A stretch of 64,000 bases of DNA, from the IMG/VR virus record IMGVR_UViG_3300042691_038416, positions 32,001-96,000 of that record; one strand, written 5' to 3'. The notes beneath the pieces are model-generated. The model was not told where the DNA came from. It saw nothing but the letters and a program-made list of their open reading frames with translations, and ran no database searches. This DNA is from a virus. A program made the translations under genes and the position numbers. This document shows positions 147 through 47,014 of this stretch, piece after piece (position 1 is the stretch's first letter; each line of letters begins with the position of its first letter).

Positions 147-673
147 AGTCCTAGTTTTTCTAATTCATTTATTACTTGCCCAGTTGATGTATATAATATA
201 CCTATACCACCTGCTACTTTCCATTCGTCTATATTTTTAGGTAAATCGTCAATAAGAATAGATTTACCTGAAGCATAATCTTTTTTATTTTCTCTTTTAG
301 ATAAAATTAATCTGGTTCCAGGTAAATTTTCTTGAACCCATAATTTTTTACCATAGCGAGATGAATAATCAGATGAAGGAGCTGATAGTAATGATGGTTT
401 ATATTTTGATATATAACTCCATAATTGTTTACCTCCAGATGTCCATGGCATTTTAGACCAAAACTGTTCACCTACTTTAGTGATTAGTTCCCAAAACTTT
501 TTAGTACCAAATCTAGTTTCATACTCATTAGGAGACATACCTCCAAACTGTTCAAAACGTCTATTAAAATCACATAGTACACCATCCATATCACAATATA
601 TTTTATATTGTGCTACTTGAGCTGCTTGTTCTTCTTCTCTTAACTGTTTATATATATTTGTTAATTTATACAT
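143..673 (-). CDS. HAD-family 5'(3')-deoxyribonucleotidase-like protein
   Basis: Motif I YCDMDGVL and C-terminal ILIDD typical of NT5C-like phage HAD enzymes. Confidence 0.85.
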   Translation of the reverse strand: MYKLTNIYKQLREEEQAAQVAQYKIYCDMDGVLCDFNRRFEQFGGMSPNEYETRFGTKKFWELITKVGEQFWSKMPWTSGGKQLWSYISKYKPSLLSAPSSDYSSRYGKKLWVQENLPGTRLILSKRENKKDYASGKSILIDDLPKNIDEWKVAGGIGILYTSTGQVINELEKLGL

Positions 674-2807
674 TCTTAATTGAATCTTCCCAATTTCTAA
701 AAATTATATTTCCGTTAAGGTAGGCTTCTTTTTCCAACTCTTGTAAGTTAGAATCCTCATTAGTATTAGTAGTGTTAACATTATTTAATCTACCTTCATT
801 ATCTTGAATACGATGAATCATTTCATGTGAGTAAGAACGCAACACATCTTTTGGATGACGATTTAAAGTATATAAAGTAATTGAACATTCATTAGGATTA
901 TAATATGCGGTTTTACCTAAAATATTTTCAGCGTTTTTTACATCACTATTTATTATTTTTAATTTAGGTAAAGGTGATATATTTAAACCTTGATCCATCA
1001 TATATTTAGTTAATGATGCTAAAGCACTTTTAAAATCAGTTGGTTGAGAATGCATACAACCACAATTTTCATTTAACTCAATTTTAGGATCTGGAGTCTG
1101 GAAATCCTTTTTACGCATTATAGTTTTAGCTATAATTTTATCAGACATTTGAACTAATGGAATATTGATATTAGTCCTATTATCTGATGCTACTACTTCT
1201 CTGTATTTAGTAAGGAAATCATTTAATTCATTTTTCTTACGAGCTAAACGTTTAAAAAATCCAATAAGTTCAGCTGGTGAGATAGGTTTGATATTTCTAG
1301 GATCATTTAATCTATCAAAGAAATGTTTAGTAAAATCAACATCTACAGGTGATAATTCCTTATCAGCATATGCTTCAACTGATTTAAGATCAGCTTGAGA
1401 CATTTCTTCTTGAATATTAAATATTTTCTTAATTTTTTCTTGAGGTATTCCAGCTGGTAGAAATTTAGATATATCTTGTTCAGGCTGTAATGCTTGTCTA
1501 AAATCTGTGGCGTTTATATTTTCACCTTGAGATACAGTTGTTCCACCATCAAATACTTTAGCATTCATATAACGAGGATCATTACCTACTTTCACATATC
1601 TATCTTCTTCTCCTTTACCATATACAGCTATATAATTGTTATTTTGATTAGCTTCTATAGTATCTAAAACATATTTTACAGGTGAACCCTGAATAATTTT
1701 AATATCTAATTTTCCGCCTAATAATGTATTATATAGTTCCCAAATAGCTTTACTTTGTTCAGCAGTAACACCCTCAACTGGTTTAGCTGAGATTAGGATT
1801 TCTATTTTATCTGCTATATTAAGTAATTTTTTAGCTACTTCAAAATGTCCTTTATGAGGTGGTTTAAATTTACCTGGGTATAAAGCAATTATTGGATTTG
1901 ATTCTTGTTCAAATAATAATGGTAAAAGTAATGCTCTAGTTAAAGCATTAGCTTCTAATAAACTATCAACAGAATTTAAAGCTGCTTGTTTATTATCACC
2001 TTTAGGTGTATTAACTTCACCACTTTTAATAGATACCATTGATTTAAAAATACCTTTTACTCTATTTTTAGAACGAGGATTTTTTAAATTAGTAGATAAA
2101 TCTTTTAATAATGTTTTAAAATCAGCGTCTATATTATAATTTGTAAATAATTTTTTAACATCATTCCAATTAGATGATTTCCAAACATCTGTTCTTTCAG
2201 TTTCTTTAAAATTATCTAAAGTAACAATACGTAATGTTAAAGCTTGACTTGATAAATTAAATTCATATTCTTGATTAGGTTCTAAAGCAGGTACATTTTT
2301 AATACCTAAACGAGCAAATATTTCTTTAGGATCTTCTTCTAAACATATTACTTTAGTTAAACCTAATAATAAACCCTGTACCTCAGCTGGATAATCTAAA
2401 AATGTATTTTTAAATGTAGATTCTTCTTCACTAATAGATACAATATTATCTATTTGAACAAATTCACCAGGCATTCCTACTATCGGATATAATATAGTCA
2501 CTAATTCTCCACTACTAAGAGATTTCTTACCTTTATATTTATCACTTTTAAATGGTACAATTACTGAGTCAGGTTGAGAAGCAAAAAATTTAGCTAAATC
2601 TTGTTTAATTATTTTTTTATCTTCACCTTCTAATTGTACAATTAAGTCAATATCACCAAAATCTTGTTTTGTTCCTGCGTTGTATGAGCCAGTAATTTTA
2701 GCTGATTTAAAGCCAGAAAATTTAGATAATACTTTTTCAATATAATCTTTAACTGTATTCTCAACAGCTGCTCTAGATATTCTATTTCCTCCTGCTGAAC
2801 CTGACAT
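666..2807 (-). CDS. multidomain protein: Pol-beta nucleotidyltransferase + HIGH-type (cytidylyltransferase-like) domain + unknown domain + HExxH zinc-peptidase-like domain
   Basis: TGS..GDIDL; YPGKFKPPHKGH and NATDFR; SYSHEMIH...EKEAY. Confidence 0.75.
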   Translation of the reverse strand: MSGSAGGNRISRAAVENTVKDYIEKVLSKFSGFKSAKITGSYNAGTKQDFGDIDLIVQLEGEDKKIIKQDLAKFFASQPDSVIVPFKSDKYKGKKSLSSGELVTILYPIVGMPGEFVQIDNIVSISEEESTFKNTFLDYPAEVQGLLLGLTKVICLEEDPKEIFARLGIKNVPALEPNQEYEFNLSSQALTLRIVTLDNFKETERTDVWKSSNWNDVKKLFTNYNIDADFKTLLKDLSTNLKNPRSKNRVKGIFKSMVSIKSGEVNTPKGDNKQAALNSVDSLLEANALTRALLLPLLFEQESNPIIALYPGKFKPPHKGHFEVAKKLLNIADKIEILISAKPVEGVTAEQSKAIWELYNTLLGGKLDIKIIQGSPVKYVLDTIEANQNNNYIAVYGKGEEDRYVKVGNDPRYMNAKVFDGGTTVSQGENINATDFRQALQPEQDISKFLPAGIPQEKIKKIFNIQEEMSQADLKSVEAYADKELSPVDVDFTKHFFDRLNDPRNIKPISPAELIGFFKRLARKKNELNDFLTKYREVVASDNRTNINIPLVQMSDKIIAKTIMRKKDFQTPDPKIELNENCGCMHSQPTDFKSALASLTKYMMDQGLNISPLPKLKIINSDVKNAENILGKTAYYNPNECSITLYTLNRHPKDVLRSYSHEMIHRIQDNEGRLNNVNTTNTNEDSNLQELEKEAYLNGNIIFRNWEDSIKNV

Positions 2808-3769
2808 TACGCTGTTTTATATTTAGATAAGTTAGAATTGTCTGGTAGAAATTTACCTTTAAGGCCTAAACGATCTTGATTTTTAATCCAATAGTCTTGT
2901 AAATCATTTGGAATATCAGCTCTAGTTGAGTCTAAAATTCTTAAATATGTATCAAACACTCTATTCAATTTATCTTCAGGTAAATTCTTTTTAATATAAT
3001 CCATTAATTCAAAATAGTCATTTAGAATATCTTGAGTTAAATTAATGTTAAATCCTTTATTTAAAGCTTGTAATGCTTCTTGAGGACTAGTAGCTACTAT
3101 CTCACCAGTACTTTTTAATTTTACTCCTGTACCGTGACTGAAAGTCATATCTAATGCCTGGAATAAAGCTACCATTAATTGAGTTCTATGTAAACCTTTA
3201 ACATTATCTTTGTAAGTATTAGAATAGTAACTAAAATTTAACCAATCTATATTACCTACGTTAATATCAATTTGAACTGCTTTATCTTCTATTTGCTCAC
3301 CATTCTCATTAAACTGAGGGAAATTACAAAATATGGATCCGTTAGCAGTTGATTTATTATCAGTTTCCATAAACTCAGATTTTTCTTCCATGTTAGTAGA
3401 TACTAACTCTAACATGGCTCTAAGTTTACTTTGAGCCTCAGTTGCGCTTTTAGCTCTTTTTCTTATTTTTTCATAAGTAGCATTAAACTCATCAGAATTA
3501 ATATTCCAATCAGATAATAATGGTTCACCATCTTTAATAAAATGATCAACACTAAAACCTAAATCAATATCACCAGACTCGTCTTTTTTACCGACTGAGC
3601 CTAAAGTACTAAAGTCAAATTTTACTTTAGGATATATCTTTTTTAATTCCGCTACAAATTTTTCTAATGTAGGTTTAATATATTCTTTTTTTATACTAGA
3701 TGTGGTACCGAATACGTTACCTCCTTCATCAAGATATATTTCCCTTAAAAGACTGATTAAAGATACCAT
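2807..3769 (-). CDS. Pol-beta superfamily nucleotidyltransferase
   Basis: LGSVGKKDESGDIDL signature and third acidic strand VQID. Confidence 0.75.
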   Translation of the reverse strand: MVSLISLLREIYLDEGGNVFGTTSSIKKEYIKPTLEKFVAELKKIYPKVKFDFSTLGSVGKKDESGDIDLGFSVDHFIKDGEPLLSDWNINSDEFNATYEKIRKRAKSATEAQSKLRAMLELVSTNMEEKSEFMETDNKSTANGSIFCNFPQFNENGEQIEDKAVQIDINVGNIDWLNFSYYSNTYKDNVKGLHRTQLMVALFQALDMTFSHGTGVKLKSTGEIVATSPQEALQALNKGFNINLTQDILNDYFELMDYIKKNLPEDKLNRVFDTYLRILDSTRADIPNDLQDYWIKNQDRLGLKGKFLPDNSNLSKYKTA

Positions 3770-12420: not shown

Positions 12421-15400
12421 TAGTTTGGTATATTAAGTATTTTTGATGTTGGACTTCCTACAAAAGCAATTGTACTTTGTGTGTTAGCTCTAGGTTGAGG
12501 ATATCTACATCTTTCTAATAATGTTTGTTTTATTACTAAACCTGAAGCTAAACCTGCTCTGGCAGGAGTAAAATCTTTAATCATTTTAAATAATGAATTA
12601 TCATAAAATTTAATTAATCTAATATAATCATTCAAGTCATAATTATGAGTATATTTAGAGAAATAATAATCTCTTAGTCTATTAAAATCAGGATAATAAT
12701 TTAATGAACCAGAAGTTGTTAATGATAATAATTGTCTTGGATCACCAATATATGAACCTATATTGAAATATCCAAGCTGAGCTATAATATCATCATTAAT
12801 TTCATCTTGAGGTGAAAAAGCAGCCTCAACATAATTCACATCTTTTGTAAATGTTTCATTAGCTGGGGAATATTGTTGAATAGATATATATTGAGATAAA
12901 GTACTACCTGATGGTAAAACCATATCTACTATTCTAATTTTTTCAGATACTGAGTTTTTAATACCAGCTACAAATTGATTTTGGTATATAGTTTCAGTAT
13001 TAGGTTCAAAAGTGAAAGTACCATTTAATATATAATTACTATTTCCAGATGTAGTAAAAGATTCAGTAGGAGGAATAAAGGAAATAGCAGGATGAATAGA
13101 TTCTCGTGTTGTTAGAGAAGCATTATTATCTAACATTGTTCCTAATGGTGCTCTAAAATATAAAGAATTAGGTGTTGAATTTGATCCAATTTGTGAGTTT
13201 CCTTCTATTGAATATGGATTCATTGTATAATCTTTAAAAGCATCAACATTTAAAGTATCAGCTGAGCTGGAGTAATAGTAAACTCTCCATTCTTGAAAAG
13301 AGCCAGAGAATGGATAACAAGTTTTACCATTTACAGTTCTAAAAGTTGAATTTGAGAGATATTGAGTAGCAGGTGTTATAAAAGAAGGGCTAGTTGTAGA
13401 AGAAGAAGCTATAAAACCTATATTACTACCATCATAACCTTCATATATATTATTAGCTGCGTATAAAGTAGCATTAGTTCCATCTAATGTTAACATTACA
13501 GACCACCATTCACCATTATAAAAAGGTAAACTTAATGTACATGAACTTCCTCCACCAAATTCTTGAAAAAATTCTAAAGTAGCATATTCATTATTAGTAT
13601 CAGGTATAGATCCACTATATGATCCACTAGTATACCCAGTACCACTATATGTTAAAGTTATATATTTTCGAGCTGAGATAGCAGGTACTGTCCACCATAA
13701 TAATTCAGAGTATGGAGAAGTAGGAGGAATACCATTAGTTTTAAATCTAAATTGTATAGTAGTTGGATTAAGAGAGTTTTCACTATCATCAAGATTTGTT
13801 GAAATATATCCATTTCCTTCAGAATAAAAAGCATAATTAAACTGTTCAATAAAGTTATCCCATGACTGATCTTGGTATGATTTACCACCAAATTCATTTA
13901 TACGAACAATAGTATCAGGAATACCATATATATTTAATAATAAATTTAAACCTTCTGTTGTTCCTTTTTTCTTAAGTAAAGCTGGTAAGTTATGATAAAT
14001 TCGTTTATAAATTTCTTTATTAATATCATCTACGGGTTCTAAAGAACTAGTAGCTGAGGCAGTTATAAATGTATTAACATACTCATATCCTGATGGTGTA
14101 GGTAAAGAACCTGTAGTATAAGGAAGATTATATAAGCTACCTGATGGAGTAATACCTAATAACGCCGAGTATAGATCATTTGTTGAAAAATTATTTTGAT
14201 ATATTTTAACTCCTAAATCTCGAATAGCTTGTGCTACTATATCTTTAGAAATACCATAATTTAATCTATTATCAGCATCAAATTTGTTAGTTATATCTTT
14301 TAAATAAACCCAAACATTATCAAAATTTTGACCAATCATTTGAATAAATAATTTATATTGGTCATTATTTGGATCATCAATTAAATAATTAGGTATTGTA
14401 TTTGTTAAAATATCCATATTCTCCTCATCATAAAGAGAAGCTGAAATACTTTGAGTTGTAAACCAATTTAAGGCAGGAACAGATGTTGTTAATTCATTTA
14501 CATATGGATAAATTGAATTAGTTTTAGGCCAAGCATAACTACTAGATTCATAGTAAAGATAATATTCATAACCATCAAAGTTAGTTATAATATCATCTAT
14601 TTTATTTTGCCATATAATTTGACTACCTGAAGTATATAAATTTAAAGGAAGACCACTGTCAGAATAACTAGCACTATAATTATATTGTTCTATTAGAGAT
14701 AATTTATAGTAAAAATTTTCTAAACGAGTTTGTGCTGAAGAAAAATGAATAAAATTTGAATAATCAGTATAATCTATATTTATCTCAATACCTTTCTCAG
14801 CTAAAATACTATTTATTTGATATAGTAAACTTCCTGATCCTAATGAAGAATAATTTTGAGTTAAAATATTTTGATTAAAATAAGGTGTTGAATTATTAAT
14901 TTGATCTTGAATTTCAAGATTAAAATTAGGACCACCTATATAATTAAATTCCTCCTCAGGAGAAAATATAGTTGTTAATTCAATTTGATATGCTTGAGAT
15001 TCAGCTATTTGTTCTACAACCCAACATTGAGAATTAATTATAAATTCATCTGGTAAAGGATCATATAATTTAATTAAAACTGTTGGATCATTAGGATTAG
15101 TATTATCTAAAGCAATATTATTAGCTATAACTAATTTATTTTCTCCAAAATTCAAAGCAAAATCTAAATACACACCTGTAGAATTAGCTATTTGATTTGC
15201 TAATTGGATTGTTAAATCAGCTACATCAATATTAGAAATTTGAGTTGTATTTAATCTTAACTCAGTTCTATCAGAACTTATATCTTGAATATAAAATGTA
15301 CTATTAGGAGAAGAAGATAATTTTCTCTTTAAAAAATTATAAACAGTATAATATTGACCTTCTGTAAATCCTTGTGATTCTAAATCATTTTGAGGATCAA

Positions 15401-37749: not shown

Positions 37750-38037
37750 TTATAATCCCTCTAATCCATCATTCAGCGTCACATCCCAATCATCATCATC
37801 TCTAACCAATAAAGCCGTTTCGAATGGTTCATCAATACCTGTTTCCCAAAACATTTCAATTCCAAATTCAACATCTGGGTGTGCTGAGATACGTGCTTCG
37901 ATGTTATCAAATACTTGTTCTTGATCCTCTATGATTTGAACGTCATATGGATGTAGTGGTAGTGTTTGGAATTCACCTAACGAATTATTATACGCCACTA
38001 ACCATTGATCATTTGCTTTAAATAGTCTTCCTTTCAT
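37750..38037 (-). CDS. hypothetical protein
   Basis: ATG 38037 preferred; ends WDVTLNDGLE. Confidence 0.65.
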   Translation of the reverse strand: MKGRLFKANDQWLVAYNNSLGEFQTLPLHPYDVQIIEDQEQVFDNIEARISAHPDVEFGIEMFWETGIDEPFETALLVRDDDDWDVTLNDGLEGL

Positions 38038-38239
38038 ATGTTTCTTGATAATACTGTTCTGCTGGTAGTGGGAACTTAAACTTGGTTGATGCTTGTCCCG
38101 TTTCATAGTCTGTCTTGCTTTGCTCTTTCTCCATTGCTTTGGCTTGTTCAATCAATTCATACATTACATGATGTACTCCAACTGTTGATTCAAGTTTGAT
38201 AAATTCTTGTTCAAGCCATTGTACCGCTGTTTGTTTCAT
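38018..38239 (-). CDS. hypothetical protein (QTAVQWL family)
   Basis: ORF with promoter motif. Confidence 0.7.
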   Translation of the reverse strand: MKQTAVQWLEQEFIKLESTVGVHHVMYELIEQAKAMEKEQSKTDYETGQASTKFKFPLPAEQYYQETYERKTI

Positions 38240-38286
38240 ATTTTTCTTTTTAACAAGTTAAATATAAGTTAAAAGATTTTGAAAGC

Positions 38287-38487
38287 CTATAGAAGTCTCC
38301 CCTCACCACTTTCATACCATTTTTCTACACTGCCATATTTGGCTATTTGTTGATTTCCTTCTTCTTCAACCTTGCGATATGCTTCTCTCCAATATTGCTT
38401 TGTTTCTTCATTCGCATCAGAAGTGTATGTACCTGAGAATAGGCATAGTTCGTCTATTTCTTGGTCTGTTAGTTTAAATGGATTCAT
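38287..38487 (-). CDS. hypothetical protein
   Basis: ORF track. Confidence 0.65.
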   Translation of the reverse strand: MNPFKLTDQEIDELCLFSGTYTSDANEETKQYWREAYRKVEEEGNQQIAKYGSVEKWYESGEGRLL

Positions 38488-38690
38488 TTTTTATTCAAGT
38501 GTTCAATAGATGTGATTATAGTATTTCTAATTGGATAGCAAGCAATAACTTCATATCTATCATCTTTATTCACCCAAAACTCATAGCATCCTGCTTGGGA
38601 ATATTTCATACCATCGCAGATTATAGATGTTTGATGTGTACTATCTGAGTTATTGTAGTATCCAAGAATTGTTATGTTGTATTTTTTCAT
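38484..38690 (-). CDS. hypothetical protein
   Basis: Translationally coupled ORF. Confidence 0.65.
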   Translation of the reverse strand: MKKYNITILGYYNNSDSTHQTSIICDGMKYSQAGCYEFWVNKDDRYEVIACYPIRNTIITSIEHLNKK

Positions 38691-38959
38691 TATTTATATT
38701 CTACGCTTACAATGTGTTTATTAACTATTTTTAATCCATCTTTCCACAATGAATCACCTTTAACTGAGTCGCATTCAATTATTGGTGTGTGGTAATATCC
38801 TGCTGTCTCATATACAATATGAACTTGTAGTGGATATTTTTTAGTTGGTTGTTTGTTGGTAGATGAAGCCAATCCAAATCCTATTACTAATCCAAATACT
38901 AACGCAGTCATTGGTATCGCAAAGTATTTTACATTAAATGTTGTCCATTCATCACTCAT
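38690..38959 (-). CDS. membrane-anchored hypothetical protein
   Basis: One transmembrane segment. Confidence 0.65.
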   Translation of the reverse strand: MSDEWTTFNVKYFAIPMTALVFGLVIGFGLASSTNKQPTKKYPLQVHIVYETAGYYHTPIIECDSVKGDSLWKDGLKIVNKHIVSVEYK

Positions 38960-39636
38960 ATTTCAAATATATTTCCGTTTGAACTTAATTTACCAAATTT
39001 TCCATCAGTCACAACTGAACCATTTGAGTAGGTGGTTCCTGGATAAGCACTTAACTGTCTTACACCTGCATTGATAATATCTTCACAGTTATGAATGTGA
39101 CCAAACAATACTAGTTTAGGTTGTATTTTCAACATATGTTTTCTCATAGCTGAACATCCACAAAACTCAAGTTCATTTTCTCTATTGTAACTCAGATCCA
39201 TTATTGTTGCTGGTGGACCATGTGATACAACTATATCTGTTCCTTCAGGAATTGACTGCCATGTCTTATTCATTTTATCTCTTGACTTGTTATAAGCCCA
39301 ACCCACTCCAAATGATGGTGTATAAGGTGTACCCCAGATTTTAATACCTTCAATTTCAGTTGAATTGTTTTCTAAATAAACAATACCTTTACTAGTGAAA
39401 TCAGCAGGTCTGACTAAGCGCTTCTCAATACTTGTATCATGATTTCCAGCTACAAACACTTTATGTTTGATTGGAAGTGATGAGTACCACTCAATAAAGT
39501 CTCTTACCTCAGGTTCATTCAAGTATGGATTACTTGGGTTTGAACAATCACCTGAGTGAATAACCATATCAACTCCATCAGGTATATTTAGCAGACCATG
39601 AAATGTATGAGTATCACTTATGTGCCAAATTTTCAT
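38956..39636 (-). CDS. calcineurin-like metallophosphoesterase
   Basis: SDTH, GD, GNHD, SHGPP, GHIH. Confidence 0.9.
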   Translation of the reverse strand: MKIWHISDTHTFHGLLNIPDGVDMVIHSGDCSNPSNPYLNEPEVRDFIEWYSSLPIKHKVFVAGNHDTSIEKRLVRPADFTSKGIVYLENNSTEIEGIKIWGTPYTPSFGVGWAYNKSRDKMNKTWQSIPEGTDIVVSHGPPATIMDLSYNRENELEFCGCSAMRKHMLKIQPKLVLFGHIHNCEDIINAGVRQLSAYPGTTYSNGSVVTDGKFGKLSSNGNIFEI

Positions 39637-39821
39637 TTTGAGAATTTTTCAATTGTTTTATTAACAATGAAACCAAATATTGAAAATGTTACTACCATTC
39701 CTATAAACCCAAGTACATATCTCCAACTATCAGTTGTTGTAAATAAGAAGTACAAGGCAAACAATAATGTACATGTTAGGAACCCAGTTAAGTAATTTTC
39801 AGGTGTAAATAATTTTTTCAT
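39633..39821 (-). CDS. small membrane protein
   Basis: Two hydrophobic helices. Confidence 0.65.
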   Translation of the reverse strand: MKKLFTPENYLTGFLTCTLLFALYFLFTTTDSWRYVLGFIGMVVTFSIFGFIVNKTIEKFSK

Positions 39822-40111
39822 ATTTTATGTATTGTATAAGTGCTATTTTTTGTTTTGAATTTATTTTCACTAATGATCTCAGTGATTTCAGTAGTTAACC
39901 ACATATAATTTCCTGGTCCGGTTGGATCAAGTACAATACTACGACCAACAGCCGGTTCATTATGTACCTTACCACCTACACCATTCTTATTCCATTCTAT
40001 AAACTTAATGACTGAAGCAGGCATTCGTATATCATCTTCAAGACGAGTGACAACATAGTTATCTTTTACTAAGTCCATAAATATTTTTGGTCGATCTATC
40101 TTATTTTTCAT
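39818..40111 (-). CDS. hypothetical protein
   Basis: WLTTEITEI..FKTKNSTY. Confidence 0.7.
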   Translation of the reverse strand: MKNKIDRPKIFMDLVKDNYVVTRLEDDIRMPASVIKFIEWNKNGVGGKVHNEPAVGRSIVLDPTGPGNYMWLTTEITEIISENKFKTKNSTYTIHKI

Positions 40112-40143
40112 GTTCTAAATATAAGTTAAAAGATTTTGAAAAC

Positions 40144-40689
40144 CTAATCCCACCAATTTTCTATATGTTTATTTAATGTATTAAATAATAAACGTCTTGC
40201 TCGTTCATGATTTTCTCTACCCATATAAAGAGCAATTCGTGATCTATCTGAATTGGAACCCAATTTTGCTACAACGCGTTTATATATTAATGGATACTTT
40301 TTGAAGTAACCATCTAAATTATCTTCAATTACTTCTGAATGCATTGTGTAGTATGGATCACCATTTTCATCTTTGTCTTCAGTTGGAATAAAATCAAATT
40401 TTGTTTCATAGTAATCAAAATATTCTAATCCATACCATTCCTCTTGAACACGTTCAATCAATTTAATACATAATCTCATTCTAGCTACTTCATGTTCATA
40501 ACCAACAAACCACTGTCTTTGCTCAGTGTAGTCAGCTGTATTTTTTATCTTGAATTTAAGAACTTCAAATATAAAGTGATCATCATAGTCTTTATCATTC
40601 CAAATGATTGGGAGCCACCTCCATAAATTCTTAATACGTCCACCTAAATCAAGGAAGAAGTATCTAATGTCAGTATATATCTTTTTCAT
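40144..40689 (-). CDS. hypothetical phage protein
   Basis: WLPIIWND...WWD. Confidence 0.75.
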   Translation of the reverse strand: MKKIYTDIRYFFLDLGGRIKNLWRWLPIIWNDKDYDDHFIFEVLKFKIKNTADYTEQRQWFVGYEHEVARMRLCIKLIERVQEEWYGLEYFDYYETKFDFIPTEDKDENGDPYYTMHSEVIEDNLDGYFKKYPLIYKRVVAKLGSNSDRSRIALYMGRENHERARRLLFNTLNKHIENWWD

Positions 40690-40711
40690 AATCTAAATAT
40701 AAATAAAAAAG

Positions 40712-40739
40712 TAGGCCAGCCCAAATTAAGGCTGGCCTA
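40712..40739 (-). terminator. intrinsic terminator
   Basis: 10-bp stem TAGGCCAGCC/GGCTGGCCTA followed by a T run on the minus strand. Confidence 0.75.
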
Positions 40740-40750
40740 AAATCAACTAA

Positions 40751-41557
40751 TTAACTCAAACAATATTCTATTGCCAACTCATATAATTTACTATTCAACT
40801 CAATATCTTTATTAAAATTCTTAATCTTACGTGCTTTACGTGTTTTGGTTGAGTAACCATACTTGAAATCACCATCAATTACTTTTTCTTGTACTCGGTT
40901 AAACACACTCCACAAATCATTTCCTTCATCTTCCTTACGAGTTGCTTTTACAAACTCGTTATAGTCAATTGTGATACGTTTCATTTCAACCTCACCAAAA
41001 CGAGCCTCAAGAGCATCCTTAGCAAACTTAAGAATCTGCTTATCCGTCAATTGAGTCTGTTTAAATTTATTCATTGACTCAACTGTGAGTGGAAGTTTCT
41101 CAACCATCGCTGTGATTGTCTTCTGTAGCTCACTAAAATCATATCCAAAGTGCCTAATCTTCAAATCAGCAAAATCTTGAGTTGAAATCACCAAACCATT
41201 CTCACATACCAACCTAAACAAACCAGCTCGGAATGTGAAAGCATTTTTACCATCACTACTATTAGTTAACAAAATTTGAGGCCAAACTGTATCACCATCA
41301 CTCCCATTAATAACAATGTCTGGATTTCGAAAAACAATTAAATGTTTTTGATAACCAGCATTGGCTCCTCGAGCGCGAACCTGTTTAGCATCAGTTACTT
41401 TCCATCCCAACACTTCCATGTCCTCAATAATTTTATAAGTTGGAATGTGGGTGTACTTCTCACTTGTATTGTGAGCACCTTTGGTAGCAAAAATAGAATT
41501 TGCTTTTTCTTTAATTTGTTCCTTAGTGAGGAACTCTTGTGATTGAGTGTTTAGCAT
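40751..41557 (-). CDS. DUF932/DUF945-family protein
   Basis: NSSDG..F...G.FRLVC.NG, DLWSVFN..QE. Confidence 0.8.
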   Translation of the reverse strand: MLNTQSQEFLTKEQIKEKANSIFATKGAHNTSEKYTHIPTYKIIEDMEVLGWKVTDAKQVRARGANAGYQKHLIVFRNPDIVINGSDGDTVWPQILLTNSSDGKNAFTFRAGLFRLVCENGLVISTQDFADLKIRHFGYDFSELQKTITAMVEKLPLTVESMNKFKQTQLTDKQILKFAKDALEARFGEVEMKRITIDYNEFVKATRKEDEGNDLWSVFNRVQEKVIDGDFKYGYSTKTRKARKIKNFNKDIELNSKLYELAIEYCLS

Positions 41558-41770
41558 AACCTTTTTTTTAGTTTGAGTTACTTATTTTTTCTTATACACT
41601 AAATATATGAGTAAATTTTCTGTAAGCCAAATTTTTTATTCTTTTTCCTTAAAATATTCTTTTAGTATTTTAGCTTCACGTTCAGTTCTGCTTTCAATAT
41701 TTCGTTTAGAACCAGTTATAACTAAAAATGCTATTAATAAAACATTCAATATTATGGTAGTTACTAGCAT

Positions 41771-41959
41771 TTAACTTAATTTATTTTTCTTATTAAAGTT
41801 AATATAATCATAATCATCTTCCTCAACCACTTGAACAATTTCAACAAAGTCATATTCAGCAATAGCTGCTGCTTCTTCTTCAGCTTCTTGTTTAGTTATA
41901 AATCCTAAATCAGATTTAAACCATTGTCCATGTACATCTTGTATGAGGAATGTATACAT
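41771..41959 (-). CDS. hypothetical protein
   Basis: ATG 41959 preferred because the longer ORF overlaps an RNA element. Confidence 0.6.
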   Translation of the reverse strand: MYTFLIQDVHGQWFKSDLGFITKQEAEEEAAAIAEYDFVEIVQVVEEDDYDYINFNKKNKLS

Positions 41960-41994
41960 GTTGTGTTGTTTATTTATACATATTAACACTTTTG

Positions 41995-42082
41995 CGGTCA
42001 GAACAGGAATCGAACCTGTGTTCTTATTCATCACATGTGTGAATAACTCTTATTAATTGCCTCACCATTCAGCCACCTGACC
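41995..42082 (-). ncRNA. tRNA-like RNA lacking a canonical anticodon arm
   Basis: GGTCAGG/TCTGACC acceptor, GCT-GAATGGTGA-GGC D arm, ACAGG-TTCGATT-CCTGT T arm. Confidence 0.65.
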
Positions 42083-42084
42083 AT

Positions 42085-42299
42085 TTCGCCCAACCGTTTC
42101 CGGCTGTCCCTAATACCGAATAGCATCGCTCAGCGGCAACCCACTTTCGTGAGAGGTTAGGACTTGTGTGTTAACTTACTACTGTTACTGGTACACCAAC
42201 CAACCGACTTAGGCTCAAGTAATCGGCTCAGGTCCCTGTGAGCAATGACCTCACTTCTCATCATGCGGGACACATTAGCTGATTATCAGTCAGCACGTG
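42085..42299 (-). ncRNA. candidate structured ncRNA
   Basis: GC-rich, no long ORF in the track, two GAAA-capped hairpins, TGTCCC/GGGACA long-range complementarity. Confidence 0.55.
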
Positions 42300-42374
42300 T
42301 AGTCCGTACGGGATTCGAACCCGTGATCTCTTCCGTGAAAGGGAAGTGTCCTAAACCAGCTAGACGAACGGACC
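42300..42374 (-). tRNA. tRNA-Glu(TTC)
   Basis: CTTCC-CTTTCAC-GGAAG anticodon arm; full cloverleaf. Confidence 0.93.
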
Positions 42375-42381
42375 ATGTTTA

Positions 42382-42675
42382 TTAAACTAAAAACTCAACT
42401 TCAATTTCCTCAGATATCTTATTCATAATTTCATCAGCCCATTGATATGAGTCTAATGGAACAAATCTATCTGATTTATATCCCATTTCACGACCTAATC
42501 GTTCTGAGTATGGTGAGATAATTTCATCAAGAGCGATAGCGGAACCATCATTAGATAGTATTTCTCTAATTGTATATGTCTCACCTACTTTTAATTTACT
42601 TAATGCTTCAATGGTTTCAGGTCGATTATCTTTAGGTGTATTATTGATACAAACTACTTTTTGTCCTACATCCAT
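42382..42675 (-). CDS. hypothetical protein
   Basis: VGQKVVCI..L.VGETYTI. Confidence 0.7.
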   Translation of the reverse strand: MDVGQKVVCINNTPKDNRPETIEALSKLKVGETYTIREILSNDGSAIALDEIISPYSERLGREMGYKSDRFVPLDSYQWADEIMNKISEEIEVEFLV

Positions 42676-42869
42676 TACTTATCTTCTCCTTTATAAGGTT
42701 CTGTTTCAATTGTTTTAGGTAAAGGTAAACCATATATTTTTATCAATTTAACATATGTTTCATCTCCCTTTCTACACTCAACCCACAATCCATTTTCTTT
42801 ACCATTTGTGGTGAGTGGAATAATAATCAATTCTTCTTTAAATAAATTCTTAAACCAATTAATAATCAT
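42675..42869 (-). CDS. hypothetical protein
   Basis: ORF. Confidence 0.55.
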   Translation of the reverse strand: MIINWFKNLFKEELIIIPLTTNGKENGLWVECRKGDETYVKLIKIYGLPLPKTIETEPYKGEDK

Positions 42870-43170
42870 ATGCTTCCCAACTTGTGAGTTCAAATACTAA
42901 TCTTAATTCAATAACTTCTTTTGTTTCTTCATCTACAGTTGCTGTTGCTCGAAATCCACCTGTAGCGTTTATATAATTTGATTTTTCTTTTACAGCACCA
43001 TCATAAGCACCATGAAGTAAATCCATTGCACATTTAAATAATGCTCCGGTAGTGGGTACTTCACCTTCACTAGTAGCCCATGTCCAGTTTAGTAATGTCA
43101 TGGCTTTATGAACTTTTCCCCAATTAAAGTTCTCAATAATACTATCAATTGCTTTTTCTTTATTTAACAT
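42859..43170 (-). CDS. hypothetical protein
   Basis: ATG 43170 after promoter motif. Confidence 0.7.
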   Translation of the reverse strand: MLNKEKAIDSIIENFNWGKVHKAMTLLNWTWATSEGEVPTTGALFKCAMDLLHGAYDGAVKEKSNYINATGGFRATATVDEETKEVIELRLVFELTSWEAYDY

Positions 43171-43392
43171 AACCTTTTTATTGAATATAAATTTAAAAAC
43201 TTTATAAGCCAAATTATACTGTTTCTTCCCAAACTCCAATAAATTCAGAGATAAGTAATACAATTGAAGCCAATATCATATCATATGGTAGGAGAATATA
43301 TCCTATCATTCTAATAAATGATTTGGTAAAACTAAGCATTTTGTGTTTTTTAGGATCTGGATGATTCATCTTCTTTATATTTTAATTGTTAG

Positions 43393-43466
43393 TAGTCCCG
43401 ACGAGGATCGAACTCATAACCTACTGCTTAGAAGGCAGTTGCTCTATCCAATTGAGCTACGGGACC
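43393..43466 (-). tRNA. tRNA-Arg(TCT)
   Basis: ACTGC-CTTCTAA-GCAGT; canonical D and T arms. Confidence 0.93.
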
Positions 43467-43561
43467 ATATTTTAACAGTATGGACATTCATATCCTCGTT
43501 CTCTAACATCATAATATTTTTGACACTTAGAACATTTTTTCCACACTTCATGATTAAATAG

Positions 43562-43638
43562 TACTCCCGGAGGGACTTGAACCCACGTGTAACCAACTAC
43601 CCTTTCTACATGGTATAAGCATGAGGGGATACGGGAGC
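43562..43638 (-). ncRNA. rearranged tRNA-like RNA with TAT (Ile) anticodon-like loop
   Basis: GCTCCCG/CGGGAGT acceptor; CATG-CTTATAC-CATG arm precedes D-loop-like AGTTGGTTA; GGTTCAAGTCC T arm. Confidence 0.7.
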
Positions 43639-43644
43639 GTGAAT

Positions 43645-43902
43645 TCATATTGTTATTGTTACTTTATTATCTTTAAAACTAATTTCTTTTATTACTCTTA
43701 TTTTACCATCCATGAAATATCTTCCCACATCCATTCCTACTCTAATAAATGGACCACCTGATGGATCAACAAACTCAATAACTCCATCTAGATTTGTTCC
43801 TACTCTATAATAATCACCTCCTATCATTTCTATTTGATTATCACTAATCTGTTTAAAAATAATATCATCTCCGTAGCGGTTAATATAACTTGCGGTCTTC
43901 AT
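43645..43902 (-). CDS. hypothetical protein
   Basis: NRYGD...FVDPSGGPFI.VG. Confidence 0.7.
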   Translation of the reverse strand: MKTASYINRYGDDIIFKQISDNQIEMIGGDYYRVGTNLDGVIEFVDPSGGPFIRVGMDVGRYFMDGKIRVIKEISFKDNKVTITI

Positions 43903-44092
43903 TTTGAGTTCGATTTCTTAGGATTGATTCTAGTATGATTTTTTTGTTTGCTTCATCTCTTGCTTCTCTTTCAAGTTGGGAATTTTTACTTTTGAGCAGA
44001 TTAATTTCTTGCTCTAGCTTAGTATTCTTCTTTTCCAGTTTAATATAAGCTATAGATATTCCTATTAATAAAAGTATAAGAGAAACAATCAT
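43880..44092 (-). CDS. membrane-anchored coiled-coil protein
   Basis: N-terminal transmembrane segment. Confidence 0.6.
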   Translation of the reverse strand: MIVSLILLLIGISIAYIKLEKKNTKLEQEINLLKSKNSQLEREARDEANKKIILESILRNRTQNEDRKLY

Positions 44093-44117
44093 GTGTTTGA
44101 TTTTTTTCACTGGTGAA

Positions 44118-44133
44118 AGGGGCCGTAGCCCCT
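44118..44133 (-). terminator. hairpin terminator
   Basis: AGGGGC/GCCCCT stem downstream of 44162..44389. Confidence 0.55.
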
Positions 44134-44161
44134 AAAAACACCAAAGAAAAATTATTGAAAA

Positions 44162-44389
44162 TTAAGCGGTTTGCTTAACACGACGACGTGAAACATAATA
44201 CATTGCATTAGCAATATCATCATTAATACGACGACGACGAGCTTTCACATTTGAGATGTGAGACTCAGAGTAACCAGTTTCAGCAGCGATGCGCTGGTTG
44301 TCACCACGGCGTTCACGTGCCATGTAGAATGCTAAAATTGCTGTGCGGTTCATACGACGCTTCAGAGATTTCATTTTACTTTTTTTCAT
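44162..44389 (-). CDS. Arg-rich HTH DNA-binding protein
   Basis: RIAAETGYSESHISNV helix-turn-helix pattern. Confidence 0.65.
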   Translation of the reverse strand: MKKSKMKSLKRRMNRTAILAFYMARERRGDNQRIAAETGYSESHISNVKARRRRINDDIANAMYYVSRRRVKQTA

Positions 44390-44692
44390 AACGTTTTTTT
44401 TTGTTTTTAATTTTTAAATTTATATTATTAATATATGTTAAAAGATTTTGGAAGCCAAACTTTTTAACTTCTCTTTTATTTAATCCATTCTTCATAACCC
44501 ATAACTATAGCCTCCACAATTGATAATTGAGGATTTTCTTTCATACTCTTAAGGGCGAATGTGACTACTTCTGCTTCTAATCCATAACCAGAGGCATTTT
44601 TAATTGCGTTTCCTATAATTTTAAGTTCTTCTAATTCCATAACTTTTTTATTATATAATAAATATAAGTTAAAGAATTTAGGAAGCCAAATT

Positions 44693-47014
44693 TTATGGAT
44701 ATAGGTAAGAGGACATTATCTTATAATCTTCACTACCAAAATGTACTAAAATGACAGAAGCCTCATTTGCTAAAGTTATACTACTATTATTATCAATTGT
44801 TCCTCCACTTGGAGCATTTACAGAATAACTAGATCCTCCACCAGTGTTTTTTATCATAAAAACTTTTCCTGTCTCATATCCTGTAGCCATATTAAGATCA
44901 GTTTTTATTTCTATAGCGCAAAATCTATTATCTATATTATCTGTGGCTGTGGCTACACTTAAACCAGGAACAGTTAATGATCTAACACCATCATCATATG
45001 TAAAATTAGTATGACCTGTAAAATTATCACTATTCCCAGCATATTGAACTCGACCTGGAGAACCTCCACTACCGTTATTAGGTTTATAAAATATTGTTGT
45101 GGTACCTGCTCCATCATCTGATCCTGAGTAATTGCTACCAGAAAATTTTAAAACAACAGAATTTGAATATGATGTGGCATTAACTTGTAAATCTTTAAGA
45201 GTTCCACCTCCACCGCCACCACCACCTCCAAAAGCACTAGAGGCAGTATAATATAATTGACCTGTAGTGGTATTGATAGTGACCACATTAGATTGGTTAG
45301 TGGTAGTTAACATTGGGAAAAATACACTACCAGAAGAATTTAAACTACCTGTGACACTTAATATACTACCATTAAATCTAAAATTAGACTCACCATTTAT
45401 TGTATTAGCAGTTCCTGTGGCTGTAAGAATATAATTATCAAAATTATTATTTATAGTTACTCCACTTCCTCCACCAAACGCACTTGATGCTGTATAATAT
45501 AATTGTCCGGTTGCTGTATTAATTGTGACTACATTAGATTGATTAGTAGTGGTTAACTCAGGAAAATAAATGGCTCCTGAGGAAAACATTCGTGTAGTAC
45601 TAACTCCAAGCATATCAGCTCTAGTACCAGCGTTAGCCCCTTTACCTATAACAAATACATCTGTTGTGTTATTTTGTTTGTTATAATAACCTATAGCTGT
45701 TTGAGCTGAACCTGACGCTATAGTTCCTACACCTGAGGCATGAGAAAAATTTCCAAACGCTGTTGTTTCTGATCCTTCAGCATGTGAGGCTGTTCCTATA
45801 GCATTTGTAACTGATCCCTCAGCATGTGAGTATACTCCTGATGCTGTTGTGACATTTCCTTCTGAGTGAGCATATACTCCTAGTGCTGTAGTACTATATC
45901 CTTCAGCATGTGATGAGGCTCCTGATGCAAAAGTTAACTGACCTTCAGCGTGTGAATATAAACCAGCAGCAGTAGTATTAATTCCTTGAGCTAAACTTTT
46001 AGATTCATATTGGAAAAGAAAACTAGCATCTCCTTCAAAAGTACTAGCTGAATTAAACTGTACTGAATATTCTACACCACCCGGATTTGTACTTCCTCCT
46101 CCACCAAATGCGCTTGATGCTGTATAATATAGTTGTCCTGTAGTTGTGTTAATAGTTACAACATTTGACTGATTTGTTGTTGTTAACCCTGGAAGAAAAA
46201 CATTTCCTGAGGCAAATGTTCTAGTTGAACTTACTCCAAAAGCATCTGCTCTTGATCCTATACCTGCTCCATTACCAACTGTAAATAAATCAGTTGTATT
46301 ACCTTGTGTGTTATATTGGCCTACTACAGTTTGCGCTGCTCCAGAAGCTACTGTATTTTGACCTAAAGCTGTTGAAGCTTCTCCTTTAGCAACAGTACCA
46401 GCATTAGCAGCAAATGAGTAGTTTCCTGATGCGTGCGCACTTAAATTAAATGCTGCTGTTTGGGTTCCAGAAGCAGTACTATTATATCCAAAAGCAATTG
46501 ATCTATTTCCACTTACTAATGAATATCCTCCTCCAACAAATCCACCATCCCCATCAATAGTGATAATATTATTATCACCCATAGCTAAAGCTGAGTTCCC
46601 AGAAACATTATTATTTTGTCCAAATGCTACTGAGCTATCACTTCCTGATATATTTAAATTATAACCAACAGCTATTGAGTTGATTGCATTCACTACAGGA
46701 GGTGCTCCGCCACCTGATGATCCTAAAGATAAACTTCTAGATTCATACTGATAAAGAAAATTATCATCACCTTCTAAAACACTAGCTGAGTTAAATTGAA
46801 CAGAATATTCTACTCCGCCAGGAGGTGTTCCTCCTCCTCCAAGAGCAGTTGAAGCTGTGATAAATACTCGTCCACTGCTACTTATTATTAGTACATCAGA
46901 TACAGTTGTTGGTGGTGTTGTTAGTGTTGTGAAATCTACACTACCTGAAACAAGTAAACTACTTGATACTTTTAGATCTTTAAAACTACCTGATCGAGCT
47001 ACAAATGTTGGCAT
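44693..47014 (-). CDS. tail fibre / adhesin-like protein with YadA-head-like repeats
   Basis: 14-aa SHAEG repeats, three LTTTNQSNVVTINT.TGQLYYTASSAFGGG modules. Confidence 0.75.
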   Translation of the reverse strand: MPTFVARSGSFKDLKVSSSLLVSGSVDFTTLTTPPTTVSDVLIISSSGRVFITASTALGGGGTPPGGVEYSVQFNSASVLEGDDNFLYQYESRSLSLGSSGGGAPPVVNAINSIAVGYNLNISGSDSSVAFGQNNNVSGNSALAMGDNNIITIDGDGGFVGGGYSLVSGNRSIAFGYNSTASGTQTAAFNLSAHASGNYSFAANAGTVAKGEASTALGQNTVASGAAQTVVGQYNTQGNTTDLFTVGNGAGIGSRADAFGVSSTRTFASGNVFLPGLTTTNQSNVVTINTTTGQLYYTASSAFGGGGSTNPGGVEYSVQFNSASTFEGDASFLFQYESKSLAQGINTTAAGLYSHAEGQLTFASGASSHAEGYSTTALGVYAHSEGNVTTASGVYSHAEGSVTNAIGTASHAEGSETTAFGNFSHASGVGTIASGSAQTAIGYYNKQNNTTDVFVIGKGANAGTRADMLGVSTTRMFSSGAIYFPELTTTNQSNVVTINTATGQLYYTASSAFGGGSGVTINNNFDNYILTATGTANTINGESNFRFNGSILSVTGSLNSSGSVFFPMLTTTNQSNVVTINTTTGQLYYTASSAFGGGGGGGGGTLKDLQVNATSYSNSVVLKFSGSNYSGSDDGAGTTTIFYKPNNGSGGSPGRVQYAGNSDNFTGHTNFTYDDGVRSLTVPGLSVATATDNIDNRFCAIEIKTDLNMATGYETGKVFMIKNTGGGSSYSVNAPSGGTIDNNSSITLANEASVILVHFGSEDYKIMSSYLYP

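Follow-up and report, generated by a model that had tools for sequence, protein, structure and literature searches.

Locus and layout of the cassette

The DNA analyzed here (64,000 nucleotides (nt), hereafter the window) is part of the 124-kb IMG/VR virus record IMGVR_UViG_3300042691_038416, which is estimated to be 76% complete. Its G+C content is about 30%, and in the open reading frame (ORF) listings made the long ORFs were found on the minus strand. On that strand the region of interest consists, in order, of a 97-amino-acid ORF (end 42382), a 7-nt spacer, a tRNA-Glu gene, a 217-nt stretch, an 88-nt tRNA-shaped element, a spacer of about 30 nt and a 63-amino-acid ORF. Judged by its homologs, the 217-nt stretch is the gene of a conserved structured RNA, a member of a small family in uncultivated aquatic phages. 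The tRNA-Glu, the RNA and the tRNA-shaped element together form a 380-nt cassette (Table 1).

A GC-rich stretch without a long ORF, with a tRNA upstream and a tRNA-shaped element downstream, had already been described in a reading of the window made from the sequence alone (the sequence-only reading), and this description was borne out. The G+C content of the 217 nt is 0.47-0.52 (50% overall) vs about 0.2-0.35 in the flanks, the only ORFs overlapping it are of 31-46 amino acids, and both flanking elements were recognized by ARAGORN and Rfam. The bounds had been given as 42085-42299; the 5' bound was retained, while the other was corrected to 42083. At its 5' end the RNA adjoins the discriminator base of the tRNA-Glu, which carries no encoded CCA (discriminator A, followed by CAC). 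At its 3' end it adjoins position +1 of the tRNA-shaped fold, with U at position -1.

Table 1. Features of the cassette and helices of the 217-nt RNA (window coordinates)
Feature	Position	Strand	Basis
Whole 380-nt cassette: tRNA-Glu, 217-nt RNA and tRNA-shaped element	41995-42374	(-)	presence/absence in relatives
tRNA-Glu (anticodon UUC), canonical	42300-42374	(-)	ARAGORN; Rfam RF00005, 63.6 bits, full length
Conserved structured small RNA of 217 nt	42083-42299	(-)	homologs, alignment A2, pair counts; covariance model R1, window score 231 bits
88-nt tRNA-shaped element	41995-42082	(-)	Rfam tRNA, 38.5 bits (gathering score 29); ARAGORN label "Leu aag"
P0, variable 5' hairpin GCUGA/UCAGC	42278-42294	(-)	5/5 pairs changed on both sides; 71% of cells paired
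P1, closing helix UCCC (42267-42270)/GGGA (42107-42110), encloses the multi-branched core	42107-42270	(-)	98.9% paired, invariant
P2, hairpin GUGAG/CUCAC	42238-42254	(-)	4/5 pairs changed on both sides; 95.7% paired
P3, hairpin ACUU/AAGU with extension CCG/CGG and AUU bulge	42204-42226	(-)	100% paired; one G-C to A-U in 3 sequences
P4, long helix UUGGUUGGUGU / ACACACAAGUCCUAA with apical hairpin P4a (UAAC/GUUA)	42157-42203	(-)	helices 99% paired, P4 invariant
P5, hairpin CUCAC-GAAA-GUGGG	42140-42153	(-)	99% paired; pair 184/199: UG 10, UA 7, CG 5
P6, helix UGCCG/CGGUA with variable inner hairpin P6a	42114-42138	(-)	pair 213/222: CG 13, UA 3, UG 1
P7, 3' hairpin CAGCCG-GAAA-CGGUUG, directly after P1, followed by tail GGGCGAAAU	42091-42106	(-)	3 pairs changed on both sides

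Homologs of the 217-nt RNA

An 18-nt motif from the last quarter of the RNA led to two true homologs, loci L089 and L090, with 87.6% identity across 201 nt. Searches with a conserved 17-mer and with a gapped motif of three blocks gave 14 and 9 loci in IMG/VR, and 24 in JGI metagenomes. By blastn, 34 other loci were identified with 75-100% identity which, together with the window, make 35 sequences, 26 of them distinct, with RNA lengths of about 215-255 nt. All homologs are in uncultivated phage or metagenome contigs, and they were confirmed by nhmmer and by covariance model (CM) R1. In the five phage records searched whole (47-318 kb), each carries one copy.

Outside this set little was found. 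The gapped motif had no match in 185,579 species genomes, and a pattern of RNA positions 189-210 none in viral contigs; six matches to a pattern of positions 197-213, all in contigs of 56-68% G+C, were attributed to chance. When positions 41950-42420 were compared with 50,697 phage records (blastn, word size 11), the only matches fell at query 32-123, which is the tRNA-Glu, and megablast of 38000-46000 against the phage collection returned only matches of the tRNA-Arg type. Hidden Markov model (HMM) and CM searches revealed no distant members beyond the 35 in 1.09 Mb of phage DNA, nor any more in 138 further loci (1.18 Mb) bearing the tRNA-shaped frames described below. Model R1 found none in five frame-holding metagenome-assembled genomes (MAGs) and 151 genomes from the class of one of them, a result which shows little without a positive control genome.

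At gathering thresholds, Rfam 15 gave only five tRNA matches in the whole window. In the region 41800-42600, searched at E<=10, the only match within 42083-42299 was a 23-nt fragment of the sR1 snoRNA (E = 4.8), and no match on the RNA was obtained at E<=1 for the members L123, L114, L106 and L120. An Rfam match, which would have taken away the novelty of the element, was thus not obtained.

Secondary structure and strand

The window sequence folded by itself has a minimum free energy of -63.1 kcal/mol, which is no better than that of shuffled sequences (z = -0.29; 73 of 200 shuffles equal or better), and the stems listed in the sequence-only reading could therefore not be judged without relatives. 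A model of 55 base pairs was derived from alignment A2, made with MAFFT from 23 distinct members of full or nearly full length, and from its RNAalifold consensus. Standard pairs occupy 95.3% of the 1219 cells. Changes on both sides were observed at 16 pairs; shuffled alignments had 8.7 such pairs on average, and none of 500 reached 16, a control which overstates the significance since related sequences can beat every shuffle in a family so narrow, with so few lineages. When the partners were slid by 1-3 columns, 31-40% of the cells were paired and at most six pairs had changed on both sides. Covarying homologs, whose absence would have spoken against the sequence-only reading, were thus found.

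The double changes are located in P0, P2, the P3 extension, P4a, P5, P6a and P7. The apical part of P4 is cleanly lost in four members of A2 (L127, L115, L107 and L100) and P6a in five (the same four and L124), and these clean losses lend indirect support to the invariant helices. P0 also occurs as GUCGA/UCGAC, as GCCAA/UUGGC or as two hairpins, its low pairing being due to long variants which use another register; P7 also occurs as CAGUCA/UGAUUG, CAGGUC/GACUUG and CAACUC/GAGCUG. The GAAA loop of P7 is kept in 22 of the 23 sequences, and the GNRA loop of P5 is not conserved across the family. With so few lineages, the covariation gives good support to the hairpins and moderate support to the architecture as a whole. 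The invariance of helix strands and junctions suggests contacts beyond pairing, with a protein or within a tertiary structure. An all-against-all column covariation analysis for pseudoknots was swamped by lineage correlation and unusable.

Four of the six stems which had been listed from the sequence alone were upheld. CAGCCG-GAAA-CGGTTG and GCTGA/TCAGC correspond to P7 and P0, respectively, and covary, while CCGA..ACTT/AAGT.CGG is P3 with its extension, 100% paired and compensated at one position. The complementarity TGTCCC/GGGACA between the ends of the RNA is compatible with the alignment, in which TCCC/GGGA is invariant and 99% paired; a second invariant GGGAC, at 42232-42236, competes with it. 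In AACC..CAC-GAAA-GTG-GGTT only the inner CAC-GAAA-GTG, the tip of P5, was retained, since two pairs of the outer AACC/GGTT are broken in 7 and 4 of the 23 sequences. The stem GGTC/GACC found no support: the first of its pairs fails in 18 of the 23 sequences, and the covarying P2 (GTGAG/CTCAC) takes up part of its bases.

The transcribed strand is the minus strand, because G-U pairs kept at 129/177 and 203/231 in all 23 sequences, and at 244/255 in 21, would be C-A mismatches on the other strand. The core of the family alignment contains gaps of 1 and 2 nt, so no reading frame is kept in the family. That the locus encodes a small protein is scarcely credible for this reason and because the substitutions follow the base pairing, even though ORFs of 31-46 amino acids overlap the stretch.

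A decayed remnant (of broken tRNAs, a tmRNA or an intron), or a functionless GC-rich spacer that arose by chance, would agree with the unremarkable single-sequence fold and with the odd, over-long tRNA matches and the tmRNA in the tRNA arrays of related phages. Such an origin is highly improbable, given conservation of 75-100% over 26 distinct sequences in differing contexts, compensatory changes spread over five helices or more, and no tRNA, tmRNA or intron signal inside the 217 nt. Neither ARAGORN nor RF00023 detected a tmRNA in the window or anywhere else in the 124-kb record, and the same tools find tmRNAs in L043 and L089. A group I intron in a tRNA was rejected as well, the RNA lying between two complete tRNA-type folds and giving no intron match at E<=10 (RF00028).

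Several known motifs were considered by eye and rejected. The sequence AUGAUGAG precedes P2 as in a hammerhead core, but no CGAAA follows. AUGAUGA and CUGA recall a box C/D-type k-turn; no canonical stem lies alongside, and CUGA is CUGG in the L121 group. For the 11-nt GAAA receptor, CCUAAG is there and UAUGG is missing. A likeness to RNase P CR-I was dismissed because AAGUCC varies among the members, a UUCG/CGAA switch between terminator and antiterminator because members with other tails do not have it, and pairing of P7 with the frame acceptor strand because P7 covaries away from that sequence.

Genomic contexts of the family

The surroundings of the RNA were compared in the 26 distinct contexts, window included. 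Upstream, a true tRNA-Glu is present in two (window and L109), and in 18 there is an abutting tRNA-shaped element, here called a frame, which ends in ...CCUGACU-A or a close variant. Four contexts (L116, L114, L125 and L117 types) have an ORF stop and no tRNA-like element, in one (L110) the frame is apparently decayed, and one (L112) is cut by the contig end. In 20 of 26, then, the 5' end directly adjoins a tRNA or frame. Downstream, a frame follows within about 12 nt in 13 contexts, always with T as the base before it (13/13), and a T-run in 10; neither is present in two, and one ends ambiguously at the contig end. A tRNA or tRNA-like neighbour is present on one side or both in 21 of 26. The RNA is therefore an autonomous module which usually resides in arrays of tRNA-shaped RNAs.

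The sequence-only reading had regarded the tRNA-shaped element as punctuation. The abutting tRNAs and frames and the constant T at -1 agree with this, while the four contexts without a tRNA-like flank and the ten with a T-run do not; punctuation is therefore usual and not obligatory.

The T-runs also bear on the possibility that the RNA acts in cis, as a 3'-end or processing element which stabilizes, terminates or insulates the transcript or guides the maturation of its tRNA-shaped neighbours. Such a role would fit the ten contexts in which the RNA ends directly in a T-run, its usual position at the edge of, or inside, frame arrays, and the promoter-like TTGACA...TATAAT and new gene that follow it in L090 and L089. 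Nevertheless it is judged unlikely. The conserved multi-helix core of about 200 nt far exceeds what a terminator or stabilizer needs; the T-run begins 6-7 nt past P7 and not directly after the stem; a frame takes the place of the T-run in the window and 12 other contexts; no terminator-like site was found on the minus strand in 41500-43600; and the RNA also exists without any tRNA-like neighbour. An intrinsic terminator in the window was rejected for the last-but-one of these reasons and because P7 is followed by GGGCGAAAU and then by the tRNA-like element.

Further observations were made in these loci. A promoter-like repeat (TTGACACTTTACAAAAG...TATTTATAA) is located at 3125-3200 and 3485-3530 of L090 and at 1890-1950 of L089, directly after the T-run of the RNA and again before the next small gene; since it follows the T-run directly, the RNA seems to close a transcription unit in both. 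Sub-threshold matches to the PreQ1 aptamer were noticed near or inside tRNA-shaped frames of L120 (531-578 (-), 25.1 bits, E = 0.06) and L106 (798-845 (-), 22.1 bits, E = 0.36); the gathering score is 39, and they may be due to chance. Among the neighbouring proteins Pfam and PHROGs recognized DUF932, HNH and zinc ribbon families and nothing else.

The tRNA-shaped element and the frame family

In the 88-nt element a 7-bp acceptor stem, a D arm that contains GG and a T arm (loop UUCGAUU) are recognizable; the discriminator is G and no CCA is encoded. The match of the element to RF00005 covers model positions 1-71, with a 28-nt insertion in the alignment that corresponds to about 28 extra nt at the anticodon arm and variable region. 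In the tRNA-Leu(AAG) drawn by ARAGORN, the anticodon stem consists of A and U alone and contains a U.U mismatch, and the 21 nt that precede the T arm are left unpaired. With acceptor, D and T arms in place and the anticodon region disrupted, the earlier term "anticodon-less mimic" would seem a fair description, and decoding by the window copy is possible.

The element belongs to a family of frames with a near-constant acceptor stem (AGUCAGG/CCUGACU), a constant T arm, an often class-II-like D arm and a hypervariable middle. The window copy, GGUCAGG...ACAGGUUCGAUUCCUGUUCUGACC-G as compared with AGUCAGG...ACAGGUUCGAAUCCUGUCCUGACU-A in the family, departs at pair 1-72 (G-C, not A-U) and in its discriminator G, a base found in 13 of 213 frames. 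Thirty-six distinct frames were counted in RNA-bearing loci. In the loci from L083 onward (the frame-bearing ones include L089, L090, L096, L098, L104, L106-L108, L119, L120, L126, L127 and L133-L230) there are 213 distinct frames of 73-205 nt (median 106), with discriminator A in 196, and only 35 are recognized by ARAGORN as whole tRNAs, with 23 different labels. A single frame 23-mer was found, in exact form, in at least 120 IMG/VR contigs. It was also found in 18 MAG contigs, many labelled Bacteroidota, with a different middle in each; over the frames of these 18, in which the L137 stretch is partly masked, ARAGORN called no tRNA.

Of 216 frames, 177 are directly preceded by T. The discriminator is nearly always followed by C (CAA in 91, CTA in 47, CAC in 26 and CCA in only 4), a trailer pattern that the tRNA-Glu (A|CAC) and the tRNA-shaped element (G|CAA) of the window also fit. 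The frames have the appearance of natural tRNA scaffolds that carry exchangeable RNA modules.

One frame of L104 (minus strand, start 3181 of the reverse complement) holds in its middle, in another order, CAUGAUGA, CCUGAGG, GGUUGGUG and ACAAGU.AGUCC, words which also mark the core of the 217-nt RNA. This frame may represent a relative in miniature or permuted form, or the likeness may be due to chance.

The cassette in related phages

The gene of a DUF932-type neighbour (Pfam/PHROGs), used as bait, recovered 80 related phage loci, in none of which the 217-nt RNA was detected by blastn or nhmmer; the 97-amino-acid neighbour as bait gave one distant locus only. The DNA of L002, the closest relative (94% protein identity), follows that of the window up to 42382 and resumes at 41984, only 17 nt lying between. 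The 380-nt block is likewise missing from L004. An identical cassette with the same flanks is present in a 1,067-nt metagenome contig (L109). The borders of the block are the first base of the tRNA-Glu and the discriminator of the tRNA-shaped element. The 380-nt block is hence a precise insertion, present or absent as one piece.

This behaviour raises the question of whether the RNA belongs to a selfish or mobile cassette, as a ribozyme or homing-associated RNA conserved for its own spread. Besides the precise presence and absence, with borders at a tRNA 5' end and a tRNA-like 3' end, the occurrence of the same RNA in otherwise different contexts and an HNH endonuclease gene 113 nt downstream in L103, L096 and L118 speak in its favour. 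The idea is nonetheless very unlikely to be right, given that no model of a self-cleaving ribozyme, an intron or other mobile-element RNA matches, that no target-site duplication is seen at the borders, that the window and most loci have no associated protein gene, and that each of the five whole records holds one copy. The HNH gene in L103, a 318-kb phage record, lies at 670-1152 (+), downstream of the RNA-frame pair (Pfam HNH_5, E = 1.4e-15), and it may drive mobility of the cassette there.

Other features in or near the tRNA arrays of these phages are a tmRNA gene in a relative (L043 5932-6330 (+), Rfam, 83.4 bits) and, in the RNA-bearing phage L089, a tmRNA with tag peptide called by ARAGORN (13563-13958 (-)). 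Over-long tRNA matches (88-125 nt, 33-46 bits) occur in relatives of the window phage at L012 2328-2452, L052 4690-4809, L069 1-106 and L024 2581-2668. The same relatives have several inter-tRNA gaps of 120-320 nt with a raised G+C of 0.40-0.48, which may conceal further RNAs. Annotation of the phage is very sparse: in the window (1-64000), seven of ten large proteins had no Pfam match at E<=0.001; the three recognized were a family-2 glycosyltransferase, an ATP-dependent DNA ligase and a weak YadA-head repeat.

Hints of expression, and proposed processing and function

Three RNA libraries from two studies and one DNA run were inspected. Contigs of family members were present in all three RNA libraries, mostly 85-95% alike and thus from relatives; the listed pieces are 77-1047 nt long, and those on the RNA core 85-289 nt. 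A 289-nt contig extends from within the RNA across the tRNA-shaped element and stops at 41997, two bases short of the 3' end of the element, and the loose ends of a 230-nt contig were read as family-type 5' and 3' parts. Window parts left uncovered in the RNA runs constitute no evidence, and the flanks of relatives differ anyway. These contigs weakly suggest that the RNA, also in a form joined to the frame, exists as a transcript.

A scan near the cassette gave no strong promoter. There is no promoter room between the parts of the cassette, nor in the 7 nt before the tRNA-Glu, so a transcript started upstream would span the tRNA-Glu, the 217-nt RNA and the tRNA-shaped element. Processing of the 3' end of the tRNA-Glu by a host tRNA-maturation enzyme would then create the 5' end of the RNA, and a cut by RNase P at +1 of the tRNA-shaped element (42082/42083) its 3' end (...GGGCGAAAU). 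Bacterial RNase P prefers U at position -1. In the sequence-only reading, tRNA 3' processing and RNase P could cut at both flanks; of these, RNase P would act on the 3' side of the RNA alone, and the 5' side would depend on 3' processing of the tRNA-Glu. There is no sign of self-cleavage. Release by tRNA-processing enzymes is plausible from this arrangement. The freed RNA of about 217 nt would be stable and act in trans, most probably by binding a protein or another RNA.

Taken as a whole, the reading we favour, that this is the gene of a multi-branched phage RNA which is co-transcribed with its neighbours, freed by host tRNA-maturation enzymes and active in trans, is considered probable, with considerable room for doubt. 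Several points weigh against it. The fold of the single sequence is no better than chance, the family is narrow (at least 75% identity) with few independent lineages, which also weakens the shuffle control, and P1, P4 and P6 are invariant, so that covariation gives no test of them. Four contexts are without a tRNA-like neighbour and ten end in a T-run. No protein family recurs beside the RNA across lineages. Finally, the pieces from the RNA libraries are assembled contigs, which show neither ends nor strand and could derive from DNA.

A broader proposal would unite the RNA and the frames in one phage RNA toolkit, with the frames as scaffolds that express and stabilize exchangeable modules and the unframed RNA as a dedicated effector released through the same processing pathway. 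Such an effector may, for example, inhibit a host factor of tRNA-directed defence or RNA processing or act as a decoy for it, or it may be a new ribozyme. We regard this extension as speculative and rather unlikely.

The RNA is of moderate interest in itself and of greater interest as a handle on the large frame family, its value being limited by the narrowness of its own family, the lack of an identified host and the lack of a functional clue. Because it is small, it is easy to synthesize, to probe and to use as bait. It could help to show the roles of tRNA-associated phage RNAs, and whether tRNA shapes serve as general cutting marks in bacteria.

Comparison with known systems

In mitochondrial transcripts and in MALAT1-mascRNA, an adjoining tRNA or tRNA-shaped fold is the cutting mark for RNase P and RNase Z. 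Those cases are eukaryotic or organellar, whereas here a bacterial phage and non-decoding frames are concerned, and cleavage is proposed from the arrangement of the parts. The YrlA and bacterial Y RNAs (RF02553) are described in excerpts of PMC4201824 as non-coding RNAs with a non-decoding tRNA-like module. In this module they resemble the 88-nt element; no Rfam match was obtained, however, and the 217-nt RNA is itself not tRNA-like.

Among candidate structured RNAs from IMG/VR, Fremin et al. (2023) reported 10,006 with covariation, some tRNA-like and 1,246 with predicted terminators (PMC10690425, in part). The 217-nt RNA family was found in the same collection, and these candidates may include it. 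A literature search gave no description of it; the main text of PMC10690425 names no such motif, its supplementary list not being covered.

ROOL RNAs are about 580 nt long. According to excerpts of PMC12286853, GOLLD and ROOL are structured phage or prophage RNAs "often near tRNA islands", with function and protein partner not known, and many GOLLD RNAs exceed 800 nt. The 217-nt RNA is likewise a structured phage RNA near tRNAs. GOLLD and ROOL differ from it in being far larger; their Rfam models match neither the window nor four other members, and nothing points to multimer cages for the 217-nt RNA.

The RNAC and RNAD of phage T4 (species 1 and 2) are matured together with tRNAs. In both systems the RNAs are encoded among phage tRNA genes, a tRNA-like neighbour being present here in the 21 contexts noted above. 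T4 RNAC and RNAD are small stable RNAs with functions that are, in the part of PMC9697503 covered, given as not yet known. They show no sequence homology to the 217-nt RNA (blastn against the 50,697 phage records gave tRNA-Glu matches only), which is longer (217-257 nt) and has a five-way branched core; no structural comparison with the T4 sequences was made. Without a sequence or model match, T4 RNAC/RNAD and GOLLD/ROOL are the nearest systems in kind. To the stable RNAs hidden in phage tRNA clusters the present work adds a compact family, well defined in its fold and about 220 nt long, single-copy where checked, which travels with a very large family of non-decoding frames.

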